64,000 nt of DNA from Eledone cirrhosa (GCA_964016885.1 OZ024743.1:16864001-16928000); one strand, 5' to 3'. Shown: positions 33,872 through 49,404, numbered from the stretch's first letter. Made by a program: numbers and translations. Notes: generated from the letters alone by a model not told the origin.

Positions 33872-35974
33872 TAGAAAGGATGAATATAAAATGAAAGTGC
33901 TTTTGTTAAAAAAGGAATTTATTAGGTATTGACATATGTTTCTGTAACAGACCGAATACCTATGTATCGCTGCTTGCGTAATCATATAATGTTAGCAAGT
34001 ATTCGATAGCAAATGTATAAACAGTTGTCACTTCTTCAGAGATTTTGGATAAACTGGATAAAATCAGAAAAATTGAAGTATTTATATTAGTAAAAGAGGA
34101 AGGAACAGAGGGGATAGAATATGACAGATGGTAAAATAATTTACTGCTAAACAAGTATATAATGGGTTTTTAATGAGAATACCATGAGTAAATCTAAATA
34201 AGAATTTTGGGAGTGCCAATTTTAATCTCTACTTGACCAACTGGACAGTGGACAGGGCTGGTCATTTGGTGCAGCAGTATTAATTATAAATTGTCAATTG
34301 GGGAAGGGGGAGATTTCGATTGCTACTAAATAAAATCAATGCTAGTAGCCAGCTGGTATATGCATTAGGGAATTGAATCAAGAAATCAGAAATCTCATTT
34401 TACCTATAGCAGTTTGTATTAAAAGGTAAATAATAGAAGAGTTGATAGAATTAAGACTAATAAAGAATGTTCATATCTATTTTGACAATCAAACGGGGAT
34501 AGAGACAGGCGTTCAATCCTGGTAGTATTTATAATATGAAAATGTAGATTTTAAGCGATGGTTACAGTATAACGATCGCTCTATTCTGTTATTTAATAAA
34601 ATGTTTTTGGATTTCATAATACAAAATAATTATACATTACATAATTTACAAAATTCCTGTCCATTGTATATGGGGGGGCAGCCGCTATTATATCCCATTT
34701 TAGGTGAAATTGTTGGTTATTTTCACGCAGCTGCCAAGCCTTGTCTGCGAGTGTTGTTACATAACGCTGGTTTTCATGTTTTATCGAATAACGATGTCTA
34801 TAAAGGCGTGATTTGAAGGAGGTGGCTGTAGATCCCACATAGTACCACTTCTGTCTATCCGATTCGATAGTACATTTGTATACGATGTTGCGTTCAAGAC
34901 ACTGATTGTTCAACGGACACATTCCTGGTTGGACACAGTTGCAATTATAATTTTGCGTTGTTGTATTGCCATGGATGGGTTGATGAGGTTGCTTATGTAG
35001 GACAGGATGTTGTTTGTTGTTTTGTGATGTTATAGCTAATGTTTTACGTGTATTGCTATGTGTTGGAAGGCGTTTATACAACCGTTTTGCGTTAAGCCTT
35101 TTTATATGTTGTTCAATATTAGGGGCGGTTGAATATGAAAGTCGAATAGTGTTAGGGTTTAAGATTTTATTATATTTATGTGATGTTGGAAAGTGTTTTC
35201 TAACTAATCGAAAGAATTTTGAGGGTAGATTGGTTTTAATAGATTTGTTATAGACCGGGTTGTACCAGATATACTCCTTACATCGCCTTCTGTTTGGTGG
35301 TGTGCGACTATTATTGTGTCTATTGCGGTAGTGTATGTATGGTGGTGATTCTGTGCTATTTCTACTCCTATGTGATTTATTTTGGGTGTTTTGGTGATCT
35401 TTGACTATATACTCTATATTATCTAGGTGACCGGCTTTCCTAAGTGCATCATCATAATACTCGGCATGTTCTTTGAAGGTTTGTTGGTTGGACGATAGGC
35501 GGGAGATTCTAAGAGAAACATTTCTAGGGATGGATTTAATTATAGAGAGTGGATGGTTAGAACTCGTATTTACATATTTAAGGTTCTCATTTAGTTTATG
35601 GAACGGTTTAATCGTATCTGTATTGAGATTGAAAGTAACATCAAGGAAATTGATCTCTTTGAGGTTATATTCAAATGTAATATTTAATCCTAGTTCCTTA
35701 AAAAGTTTTCTGATATTTTTACGCATCCTTTCTAAATTCTGGTTATTCATATGCTTAACTAATAGGAGCGCATCGTCAGGGTAAATTCCACCGTGGAGAT
35801 CCTTGAATTTTCCTTGTAATCTGTGGGTGATATAAATTCCCACAAGATCTGTTACTTCCGCCGAATCATTAGAACCCATAGTGATATCAAAATTAGAAGG
35901 TCTATCTTTGCGAACCCAGTAGCTATCATCGAATTTAACTATAGTTTTTCTCGCTTCCATAATAATTTTAATTT
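33872..35974 (-). mobile_element. Naiad-type PLE, inverted (left) arm of palindrome 1
   Basis: Reverse complement of 36470-38565 with scattered differences. ORF 34614-35960 has RT (YRDD mutated to YPDD) and GIY-YIG. Confidence 0.92.
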
Positions 35975-36049
35975 AGTTAAGGGTTGCGTTCTATCGTCAA
36001 TACAAAGTTTTGTAACAATATCACAAGTTTTTTAACAATATCACAAGCC

Positions 36050-38670
36050 ACACTTAAAAACATCAACTTAAAAACATCAACAACTCGGCATGTGATATTG
36101 TTAAAAAACTTTGTATTGACGATAGAACGCAACCCTTAACACCAGCTATACCATCCTTCAACCTGAAGGACCACGAGGTAAACTTCGATACTAACCCTAA
36201 TATTAGACTTATATGCCCCTCTAAATCTGATATAGGTAAAATTAGCAAATATATACTAGACAGAATTATCCCCCAAGTTAAGGTTAAAGTAGAGATTAAA
36301 CTATGGGGTAACACTCATGAAGCAATAAGATGGTTTAATAACATTACTGATAAGAAAAAATCAAAATTTATTCAGTTTGATATTGATGAATATTATTCCT
36401 CAATTTCACCTGATACTCTACATGAAGCTCTTTCGTTCGCTAAGGATAATTCCGACCTTACGGATGCTGAAATTAAAATTATTATGGAAGCGAGAAAAAC
36501 TATAGTTAAATTCGATGATAGCTACTGGGTTCGCAAAGATAGACCTTCTAATTTTGATATCACTATGGGTTCTAATGATTCGGCGGAAGTAACAGATCTT
36601 GTGGGAATTTATATCACCCACAGATTACAAGGAAAATTCAAGGATCTCCACGGTGGAATTTACCGTGACGATGCGCTCCTAAGCGTATGAATAACCAGAA
36701 TTTAGAAAGGATGCGTAAAAATATCAGAAAACTTTTTAAGGAACTAGGATTAAATATTACATTTGAATATAACCTCAAAGAGGTCAATTTCCTTGATGTT
36801 ACTTTCAATCTCAATACAGATACGATTAAACCGTTCCATAAACTAAATGAGAACCTTAAATATGTAAATACGAGTTCTAACCATCCACTCTCTATAATTA
36901 AATCCATCCCTAGAAATGTTTCTCTTAGAATCTCCCGCCTATCGTCCAACCAACAAACCTTCAAAGAACATGCCGAGTATTATGATGATGCACTTAGGAA
37001 AGCCGGTCACCTAGATAATATAGAGTATATAGTCAAAGATCACCAAAACACCCAAAATAAATCACATAGGAGTAGAAATTGCACAGAATCACCACCATAC
37101 ATACACTACCGCAATAGACACAGTAATAGTCGCACACCACCAAACAGAAGGCGATGTAAGGAGTATATCTGGTACAACCCGGTCAATAACAAATCTATTA
37201 AAACCAATCTACCCTCAAAATTCTTTCGATTAGTTAGAAAAGACTTTCCAACATCACATAAATATAATAAAATCTTAAACCCTAACACTATTCGACTTTC
37301 ATATTCAACCGCCCCTAATATTGAACAACATATAAAAAAAGCTTAACGCAAAACGGTTGTATAAACGCCTTCCAACACATAACAATACACGTAAAACATT
37401 AGCTATAACATCACAAAACAACAAACAACATCCTGTCCTACATAAGCAACCTCATCAACCCATCCATGGCAATACAACAACGCAAAATTATAATTGCAAC
37501 TGTGTCCAACCAGGAATGTGTCCGTTGAACAATCAGTGTCTTGAACGCAACATCGTATACAAATGTACTATCGAATCGGATAGACAGAAGTGGTACTATG
37601 TGGGATCTACAGCCACCTCCTTCAAATCACGCCTTTATAGACATCGTTATTCGATAAAACATGAAAACCAGCGTTATGTAACAACACTCGCAGACAAGGC
37701 TTGGCAGCTGCGTGAAAATAACCAACAATTTCACCTAAAATGGGATATAATAGCGGCTGTCCCCCCATATACAATGGACAGGAATTTTGTAAATTATGTA
37801 ATGTAGAATTATTTTGTATTATGAAATCCAAAAATTTTTTATTAAATAACAGAATAGAGCGATCGTTATACCGTAACCATCGCTTAAAATCTACATTTTC
37901 ATATTATAAATACTACCAGGATTGAACGCCTGTCTCTATTCCCGTTTGATTGTCAAAATAGATATGAACATTCTTTATTAGTCTTAATTCTATCAACTCT
38001 TCTATTATTTACCTTTTAATACAAACTGCTATAGATAAAATGAGATTTCTGATTTCTTGATTCAATTCCCCAATGCATATACCAGCTGGCTACTAGCATT
38101 GATGTTATTTAGTAGCAATCGAAATCTCCCCCTTCCCCAATTGACAATTTATAATTAATACTGCTGCACCAAATGACCAGCCCTGTCCACTGTCCAGTTG
38201 TCAAGTAGAGATTAAAATTGGCACTCCCAAAATTCTTATTTAGATTTACTCATGGTATTCTCATTAAAAACCCATTATATACTTGTTTAGCAGTAAATTA
38301 TTTTACCATCTGTCATATTCTATCCCCTCTGTTCCTTCCTCTTTTACTAATATAAATACTTCAATTTTTCTGATTTTATCCAGTTTATCCAAAATCTCTG
38401 AAGAAGTGACAACTGTTTATACATTTGCTATCGAATACTTGCTAACATTATATGATTACGCAAGCAGCGATACATAGGTATTCGGTCTGTTACAGAAACA
38501 TATGTCAATACCTAATAAATTCCTTTTTTAACAAAAGCACTTTCATTTTATATTCATCCTTTCTACATTTCTCCGGAATATAATTCATACTCGTTGAGCA
38601 AACCTGCACGTACGCTGTTCATCTCTAACGTAACGATATATTATCACTACATTATTGATAACCTGAAATT
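36050..38670 (+). mobile_element. Naiad-type PLE, main (right) arm of palindrome 1, 5'-truncated and frameshifted
   Basis: LKDH..NF..RLICPSKSDIGKISK, FIQFDI, FDITMGS.DSAEV.DLVG, GIYRDD, CNC..CPL..C, IVY..YVG. About 105 nt of extra 3' tail, then (TA)n. Confidence 0.92.
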
Positions 38671-39081
38671 TTATATATATATATATATATATATATATAT
38701 ATATATATATATATATATATATATATATATTTATATATATATATATATATATATATATATATATATATATATATATATATATATATATATATATATATAT
38801 ATATATATAAATGGAAAAGAATGGAACGAAATTTCATTTCTCACACTTAGTACGGCTGATACCTAAATATAAGTATGTATACGTACATACATATATGTGT
38901 ACAGATGCACAGTAGTATGTATATATACATATATATATACATGCACACATGTATATATGTACGTATGGGTTTACCGAACATTTATTATACTGCTCGGTGT
39001 GTTTGTAAACAAATAGCCCGAATTATGCCGTACAGTGCTCGGCAACCATCGTCGCCCTTTTTGTTCAACACTGACACAGGA

Positions 39082-48356: not shown

Positions 48357-48591
48357 TCTTGGCGCAAAACCAATTTTTTATCCACATGACCTCTACCGAC
48401 CAATCAAAATTGTTTTGACCATAATCTTTGCTGGAGCCACTTTTCTAACATTTTAACATAAAAACAGTCTTGGCGCAAAATCAACTTTTTACATTCACAT
48501 GACCTCTACCGACCAATCAAAATTGTTTTGACCACAAGCATTTTTACAACACAAAAATAACGCTGGAGCCATTTTTTTAACATAAAAACAG
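48357..48591 (+). repeat. ~111-bp imperfect tandem duplication in the Neptune 3' UTR (mirrored in the left arm)
   Basis: TCTTGGCGCAAAA...CACATGACCTCTACCGACCAATCAAAATTGTTTTGACC at 48357 and 48468. Confidence 0.85.
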
Positions 48592-49084
48592 GTAGAATTC
48601 CCAAAACTAATCAGATCAGAGCAAACAGCACGGACACTCTATCTCAAAATTATTTTTGAAAAGCATTTAGAAATGCGCAACCGGTAAAAACTTAAAAACT
48701 TAAAACCACAACTGAATACTAACCCATACAATCACTAATACTCTTTTATCCCTAATTAAACCATTTTTCAACTGTGAACAATTTGTCAGCATTTTCTATT
48801 CCGTTTACCAATATATAATAACTTGTGTGTTACACCTCTATTCTTTTAACTATATATATATATATATATATATATATATATATATATATATATATATATA
48901 TATATATATATATATATATATATATATATATATATATATATATATATATGTATATATACATGTATATATATATGTACATGTATATATATGTACATGTACA
49001 TGTATATATACATGTACATATATATATATATGTATGTATATATATATGTATATATATATATATATATACATATATATATATATA

Positions 49085-49404
49085 CAGATGTGCACTCATC
49101 TGGCAGGAATGCATACTTTGCTGACGATAGCTAATAAGCTTGAAACTAGTACATCGTTCCGTCGTCAGGGTTGCTAGACACTGTACGGCTTAATTTGGGA
49201 TGTTTGTTTACAAACACACTGGGCATTATAATAAATGTTCGGTGAATCCATAAGTACATATATATATATATGTGTGCATGTATGTATATATATAAATACT
49301 ACTGTACGTCTGTATACATATATTTATGTACGTATACATACTTACATTTAAGTAACAGCCGTACTACGAGTGAGAAATGAAATTGCGTTTCATTTTTTCT
49401 GTTT
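49085..49404 (+). repeat. Additional diverged copy of the hammerhead repeat (HHR at 49115-49157, helix I eroded)
   Basis: ACTTTG CTGACGA TAGCTAATAAGCTT GAAAC TA GTA CATCGT, followed by the monomer body; ends at the same point as the minus-sense copies before (TA)n. Confidence 0.8.

Follow-up and report, generated by a model that had tools for sequence, protein, structure and literature searches.

Insertion ends of a hammerhead repeat in Eledone cirrhosa and the case for its mobilization by Penelope-like elements

Class and insertion ends of the hammerhead repeat

A window of 64,000 nt of Eledone cirrhosa DNA (GCA_964016885.1 OZ024743.1:16864001-16928000; all coordinates are counted from the window start) was analyzed, in which Penelope-like elements (PLEs) cluster with copies of a hammerhead repeat at positions 33872..49404, with (TA)n tracts between them. 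The repeat was probably copied in trans by the protein of a (TA)n-targeting PLE, carrying a reverse transcriptase (RT) and a GIY-YIG endonuclease. This mobilization was favored because the two recurring 3' ends of the repeat, its 5' truncation, its (TA)n target and the palindrome at its inverted junction fit the behavior of PLEs. The initial annotation had gone further and described a parasite and its helper in one locus. Copying in trans by a PLE was retained as the best reading, its two (TA)n ends being echoed in the reads of a related organism, while the helper at this locus was not: the window presents one duplicated composite, no sequence link between the repeat and the PLEs, and flanking PLE copies that are truncated.

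The monomer has about 428 nt (421-431), occurs as a circularly permuted unit with a GC content of 0.37-0.39, and has a longest ATG frame of 72-89 aa when doubled. A motif scan located hammerheads in four copies, at 39118(-), 39900(+), 40644(-) and 41608(+), with the parts CTGACGA, a short stem II, GAAAC-TA-GTA and a 6-bp stem I (Table 1); a short palindromic helix III is typical of animal hammerhead motifs (PMC4209133). Each arm is terminally redundant and contains one hammerhead in 1.2-1.35 units, and two tandem hammerheads in one arm were not found in the window. The repeat had 0 matches in Rfam at the gathering score, and no hammerhead family was among the best 150 of 251 matches by E-value, which were mostly AT-repeat microRNA look-alikes and were read as chance. 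In the ring layout, positions 273-428 lie on both sides of 1-272 with no open reading frame (ORF) between, and the predicted circle was stable at z values of about -4.6 to -5.1 (40 shuffles), AT palindromes accounting for part of this. Judged by these sequence features, the repeat is classed as a non-coding, non-LTR (long terminal repeat) retrozyme-type element with a type I hammerhead. It belongs to a dispersed multi-copy family, which is represented in the window by a solo copy of a different subfamily (15.5-18.8% from the composite arms; core kept, stem I broken) and which makes up about 0.5% of the restriction-site associated DNA (RAD) reads in the related organism, hereafter organism A.

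Like the animal non-LTR retrozymes (PMC7229834; 350-390 bp in mussel), the repeat has a type I hammerhead with a short palindromic helix III, a non-coding unit of about 400 nt, a GC content <45%, co-occurring PLEs and a predicted stable circle; unlike them, its arms are head-to-head, and no head-to-tail array is present in the window. Both (TA)n targets and inversions were found for the window repeat, whereas the words "microsatellite" and "inverted" have 0 occurrences each in the accessible text of PMC7229834. Monomer derivatives are a recognized retrozyme class (bioRxiv 10.64898/2026.07.22.740005).

The longer copies form two composite blocks, A and B, each with a minus arm and a plus arm. 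The minus arms (at 38811 and 40339) and the solo copy (at 49404) end at the same monomer position, the long end, just as had been annotated, and the plus arms end 53-60 nt before it, in agreement with the earlier figure of about 60 nt. In the A-minus monomer the word ATTTA is present only at positions 371 and 427, 56 nt apart, which are the two recurring 3' ends. A (TA)n tract of at least five units, (TA)≥5, is found at most 2 nt from the ends of the composites and from either end of the solo copy, against a background of 2.81% of the window occupied by such tracts, and a perfect fold-back hairpin is found at the head-to-head junction. For all 13 outer element ends examined, a (TA)≥5 tract was at most 3 nt away in 12, a count that is descriptive since the outer ends were placed where homology stops. 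As for the joint itself, the head-to-head orientation was confirmed, but the direct joining that had been described was not, one (A) or two (B) short plus-sense units lying between the arms. At 39512-39620 of block A, the central hairpin is replaced by (AT)n and flanked by mirror-image (AC)n and (GT)n expansions, which suggest repair templated across the palindrome.

Reads from organism A were mapped on window 41342-41860 for 4 of the 14 candidate runs, with a best share of window words of 0.14 and no RNA run among those listed; run X4 (282 contigs) was not used as evidence. The repeat family was abundant, with 69,407 of 12,467,656 reads in X12, 64,681 of 12,785,554 in X13, and 7,689 contigs in X1. 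Among the best 24 of 995 loose ends, 6,532 X13 reads were observed to exit the repeat at 41417, within a few letters of the window short end, with a consensus into (AT)n (agreement 0.83); this exit was among the best listed for X13, not for X12. Depth dropped between 41409 and 41418 by 3,832 of 35,200 (11%) in X12 and by 4,874 of 32,364 (15%) in X13, and X1 contigs ran into (TA)n from 41415, 41466 and 41472, which correspond to the short and long ends. One head-to-head fold-back, at 41765, the position of the window hairpin, was present among the joints listed. The majority letters of organism A keep the hammerhead core and restore stem II at 41618-41619. Contigs and reads cross the monomer 428/1 point, and one joint that goes back 403 may reflect a tandem locus. 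Molecule ends at 41457, 41525/41528 and 41702/41705 were rejected as library cut sites, matching the three AATT sites of the stretch, and loose ends at 41457-41461, which lie on an AATT site, were set aside as presumed ligation chimeras.

An inverted 5'-truncated copy, a one-sided tail and (TA)n targets are traits of PLEs (Craig et al. 2021, PMC8557442; the first two also PMC3846280), the target being (TA)n in 26 of the 27 Hydra rows (PMC8557442 supplement), and both palindromes at inverted junctions and mobilization in trans have been described for PLEs (PMC3846280). In one PLE studied in vitro, Anolis Poseidon PAc, the RT starts on AT-rich nicked DNA at two internal sites downstream of the hammerhead, and the gap between these sites is the genomic tail (Frangieh et al. 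2024, PMC11167929). The repeat resembles PAc in its two putative internal starts downstream of the hammerhead and its AT-rich target. In PAc, an autonomous element, the start lies in an AC-rich stem-loop that has no homology to the target, whereas the repeat ends lie on ATTTA, with a match of 2-3 nt to (TA)n. The non-autonomous PLEs of Chlamys, such as MRC1 (PMC8557442), are likewise non-coding and have partial tandems similar to those of the pseudo-LTR (pLTR) of PLEs; unlike the window repeat, which shares no 3' end with the four PLEs of the window, they share their 3' ends with autonomous partners.

Table 1. Coordinates of the PLEs, composites, hammerheads and solo repeat copy in the window.
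Feature	Position	Strand	Remarks
PLE0	31830..33736, left edge approximate	+	decayed Hydra-like copy; outside 33872..49404
PLE1 inverted 5'-truncated arm	33873..35974	-	3' end in (TA)n 33822-33873; without tail
PLE1 center	35975..36057	.	rearranged pieces; 35976-36025 is a 50-nt inverted copy of 36091-36140
PLE1 main arm	36058..38568	+	5'-truncated RT, CxCX5C linker, C-terminal GIY-YIG-type domain, frameshifted
PLE1 3' tail	38569..38672	+	104 nt, main arm only, then (TA)n
Composite A	38811..40142	.	minus arm 38811-39331 (long end), plus arm 39621-40142 (short end)
Composite A interior			fold-back hairpin 39323-39340; short plus unit 39333-39511; then linker
Type I hammerhead	39082..39124	-	best-kept stems; predicted cut after 39088
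Type I hammerhead	39894..39936	+	stem II damaged; predicted cut after 39930
Composite B	40339..41845	.	minus arm 40339-40862; plus arm to 41845; one more short unit than A
Composite B interior			hairpins at 40854, 41075, 41297; short units 40865-41042, 41085-41260
Type I hammerhead	40609..40650	-	loop III has lost its palindrome; predicted cut after 40615
Type I hammerhead	41602..41644	+	stem II damaged; predicted cut after 41638
PLE2 inverted 5'-truncated arm	42779..45599	-	3' end at short (TA)n tract 42760-42778
PLE2 main arm	45600..48817	+	673-aa open frame without start; RT PF00078 and C-terminal GIY-YIG PF01541; long 3' untranslated region (UTR)
PLE2 3' tail	48818..48851	+	about 34 nt, main arm only, then (TA)n
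Solo 5'-truncated repeat copy	49085..49404	+	(TA)n on both sides, long end
PLE3	49459..51582	-	decayed Hydra-like copy, DKT motif; outside 33872..49404

Penelope-like elements of the window

The divergent palindromes annotated for the two PLEs inside the cluster, with central 5' ends and 3' ends in (TA)n, were confirmed for PLE1 and PLE2. In PLE1 the head-to-head arms 33873-35974(-) and 36470-38568(+) had 18 differences in 2094 columns (0.86%), and in PLE2 the arms 42782-45599(-) and 45984-48807(+), also head-to-head, had 0 differences in 2818 columns; identity over 2.8 kb could be an assembly artefact. The longer of the two arms, noted earlier for both elements, exceeds the other by 104 nt in PLE1 and about 34 nt in PLE2, which corresponds to the published PLE "tail". 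When the PLE1 tail alone was aligned to the end of PLE0, 15 of 500 shuffles were as good (weak homology), but for the whole segment that follows the hammerhead half-site none of 500 was. The 104-nt tail is therefore probably element sequence.

PLE1 had been labeled Naiad, a name that did not hold: Naiad has an N-terminal GIY-YIG and a CxC domain ahead of the RT, and the Hydra clade a C-terminal endonuclease and a CxCX5C linker (PMC8557442), while in PLE1 the endonuclease follows the RT and the linker is CNCVQPGMC (CxCX5C). A CxxC near the C-terminus and a (TA)n target were found as well. The element has a frameshift near the C-terminus, and its truncation precedes the DKT position. Twelve homologues (31-41% identity) were obtained among 1,443 candidates; DKT and the same linker were present in the 3 inspected (P0001, P0002, P0007), and DKT also in PLE3. 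By motifs and domain order, PLE1 is assigned to the Hydra clade. PLE1, PLE0 and PLE3 resemble the Hydra PLEs of PMC8557442 in their C-terminal endonuclease, CxCX5C, (TA)n, inverted 5' copy and tail, and DKT is shared with them by PLE3 and the homologues; they differ in the length of the PLE1 tail (104 nt vs 30-40 nt) and in that no complete hammerhead was found in the window copies. A relaxed motif scan of the four PLE 3' regions found no complete hammerhead. PLE1 has at 38398-38512 a hammerhead-like core (38398-38506) whose loop II measures 80 nt and for which a stem I of at least 4 bp was not found; this may be a decayed or intron-split ribozyme. Palindromic hammerhead 3' half-sites occur in PLE0 (33540-33557) and PLE1. 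Six letters after the predicted cut are common to PLE0 and PLE1.

PLE2 carries a CX4CxxC linker and a DKG motif, by which it is placed as Neptune- or Nematis-type, the linker being common to both clades; Nematis shares the linker type of Neptune (PMC8557442). Its 3' UTR contains a direct duplication of about 110 nt (48363-48541) and, in addition, (CA)n and (TA)n tracts. A 29-nt antisense match (48236-48264, 83%, E 0.002) between this 3' UTR and the 5' side of the repeat hammerhead was retained as a lead only.

The two PLEs outside the cluster also end in simple tracts, PLE0 at (TA)n 33739-33770, with its half-site at 33540, and PLE3 in the same (AT)n tract as the solo hammerhead repeat, with a tail of about 40 nt. 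The inverted arm of PLE3 is 63 nt long (51520-51582) and has no (TA)n at its end. Repeated insertion into a single (TA)n-rich stretch explains why the repeat and the PLEs lie together.

Mechanism, contrary evidence and rival explanations

In the proposed mechanism, a PLE endonuclease would nick (TA)n, and the RT would start inside the repeat RNA at either of two AUUUA words, well downstream of the ribozyme cut. The two start sites would give rise to the PLE-like asymmetry of the "tail", and the 5' ends would be resolved at the AT-rich palindrome near monomer position 273. One old composite would have formed in this way; a later local duplication, for which unequal exchange between the flanking (TA)n tracts is the simplest route, would have produced A and B, and younger Hydra and Neptune-type copies would then have inserted in the same (TA)n-rich stretch. 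The helper would be a PLE family, not the window copies. Hammerhead style, the sole basis of the choice, made Hydra slightly preferable to Neptune or to an unseen Naiad: in 14 of 26 Hydra hammerhead rows compared by eye (PMC8557442 File S2), stem II is flanked by the same T..T as in the repeat.

It is conceivable, although tentative, that a retrozyme without any sequence likeness to its helper carries the full PLE footprint (two AUUUA starts 56 nt apart, nicked (TA)n and a Hydra-clade protein). If true, this would constitute integration-level evidence for the mobilization of retrozymes by PLEs. The 1.3-1.5-kb composite may, in addition, itself be mobile: transcripts reading through A and B are predicted to be cut at 39930/41638 (+) or 40615/39088 (-), giving RNAs of 1.7 or 1.5 kb that would carry hammerheads in both polarities.

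Several results weigh against copying by a PLE, or limit what the locus says of it, and the first group concerns the relation between the repeat and the PLEs. The best of 21 local-alignment tests between repeat and PLE ends was equaled by 27 of 500 shuffles, ATTTA was present at some PLE ends but not all, and no 3' or pLTR homology with an autonomous partner was found among the four window PLEs. Apart from the antisense match given above, the monomer had only low-complexity BLAST matches in the four PLE 3' regions, and the top matches of a window search with the repeat copies masked were AT-rich tracts. A shared 3' RNA structure, which had been suggested as a check, was not seen, PLE ends folding at 0 to -5 and repeat ends at -6 to -10 kcal/mol. 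The PLE1 and PLE2 copies cannot be the helpers, and only their families could, because both are 5'-truncated, PLE1 is also frameshifted, and by arm identity both are much younger than the composite. The T..T likeness was compared with Hydra rows only and may not be specific to Hydra.

The second group concerns the composites. Blocks A and B are colinear, with minus arms 6.4% and plus arms 9.3% apart, whereas the arms of one block are 13.4% (A) and 11.9% (B) apart, and 20 informative sites group the arms by side against 1 by block. Outside the low-complexity part these numbers were 9 and 1, and the plus arms grouped at 99/98 support. Since the arms group by side, and a minus-arm internal deletion of about 70 nt, the fold-back hairpin and a third 3' end are common to A and B, the two blocks are read from the alignments as copies of one composite whose geometry was made once and then duplicated. 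The equal geometry of the blocks, earlier counted as two observations, is accordingly one, and the independent evidence of the window amounts to one composite and one solo copy of another subfamily. The third 3' end lies 26 nt beyond the long end, in the short plus units (one in A, two in B), and of these 3 ends only 1 has a (TA)≥5 tract at a distance of 3 nt or less. An arm distance of 12-13%, compared with 0-0.86% in the PLEs, means that the composite is much older than the neighboring PLEs or had several templates. Where 3' segments overlap inside a single minus arm, 18 of 92 and 14 of 92 columns differed, which speaks against one fresh pass around a single RNA circle.

The third group concerns organism A, which was treated as a relative of the window species, most of its RAD reads being <90% alike; these reads give no locus count or share of copies. 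Tail-to-tail joints were 8 of the best 15 of 76, and 7 of the 8 occurred in both RAD runs. They could be nested insertions or 3' fold-back. The largest piles of loose ends, at 41460/41461 (8,453-13,726 reads each), were heterogeneous (agreement 0.34) and did not lead into (TA)n. The tail-to-tail joints link the short-end zone 41410-41435 to the hammerhead zone 41597-41651 at several organism A loci.

Among the rival explanations, the one that survived best, although unlikely, is copying by another RT, belonging to a long interspersed nuclear element (LINE) of the window, which we take to be R4/Dong-like or Tx1/L1-like, or to an absent element, each block consisting of two independent opposite insertions into a symmetric AT-rich target. 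The distance between the composite arms, the lack of homology to the PLE ends and the tail-to-tail joints would agree with this, and both orientations would be expected at a symmetric (TA)n; LINEs were also named as an alternative by Cervera and de la Peña (PMC7229834). However, the monomer had no match to the window LINEs beyond low-complexity AT tracts, and the LINE-like elements adjoin (TAA/ATT)n, not (TA)n. In addition, the repeat has no poly(A) or simple tail, (TA)n flanks its solo copy on either side, and a pair of internal start points is, by the published description, confined to PLEs (PMC11167929).

It is less probable still that the repeat is the orphaned pLTR or 3' end of an autonomous PLE absent from the window, with copies that arose in cis as 5'-truncated stumps. 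The stumps of PLEs commonly have partial tandems, a tail and a 5'-junction palindrome (PMC8557442, PMC3846280), but the unit is a closed ring, as its layout without an intervening ORF indicates, and in organism A it is crossed at 428/1 by contigs and reads. Spread at the DNA level (Helitron-like rolling circle, or minisatellite turnover through slippage and recombination at AT-rich tracts), with the hammerhead as a relic and the ends as deletion points at ATTTA/(TA)n microhomology, is very improbable. It would be suited by a hairpin that immediately precedes the long end (z of -2.14 and -0.34 in two copies), by the A/B duplication and loss of the A-linker hairpin, which look like DNA events, and by the damaged stem in most window hammerheads. 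In organism A, however, the majority letters preserve the core and repair stem II, and in the window the ends are 53-60 nt out of register, without symmetric terminal inverted repeats. The solo copy is 5'-truncated with its 3' end at a recurring site, and none of the 3' ends lies at the longer TA tracts inside the repeat.

Published proposals and neighboring sequences

PLEs were proposed as mobilizers of animal retrozymes in 2020 (PMC7229834; PMC7761336), and a 2026 preprint by Li, Clavereau and Pollet regards retrozymes as non-autonomous PLE derivatives because in Xenopus the two co-occur and show pLTR homology, with 24 of 57 families matching Repbase transposable elements (bioRxiv 10.64898/2026.07.22.740005). 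The hypothesis considered here, that retrozymes use the PLE machinery, is the same; unlike the retrozymes of that preprint, the window repeat has no pLTR homology to its neighbors, and its evidence is the geometry of its ends. The enzyme that moves animal retrozymes has so far been argued from co-occurrence and, in 2026, from the frog pLTR homology. Insertion ends offer a third, more mechanistic line of evidence, here in an abundant family with named start sites and target. No report of a retrozyme with (TA)n targeting or a two-site tail was found, in a search that covered the subscription literature thinly, and the preprint supplements may hold insertion-site data. The mobilization hypothesis is thus already published, and the window adds modest, thin support at the level of integration. 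The locus alone is not decisive because its geometry is one duplicated event and its neighbors are dead, younger copies.

A metagenome scan with a long hammerhead pattern gave 0 loci. The 106 loci obtained with a 19-letter pattern were dropped, none having an upstream CTGANGA core or a BLAST match >30 nt to the monomer.

Outside the cluster, a LINE with a 993-aa open frame was located at 22167-25148 (-), followed by a two-ORF element ending in (ATT)n at 25260-30858 (+), and a LINE-like element was found at 15051-19009 (+), with decayed paralogues spread over 1-21 kb. We take the first to be R4/Dong-like, the second Tx1/L1-like and the third CR1/Jockey-like. A short GC-rich inverted repeat was also observed at 42591-42632, in the unique stretch between block B and PLE2.

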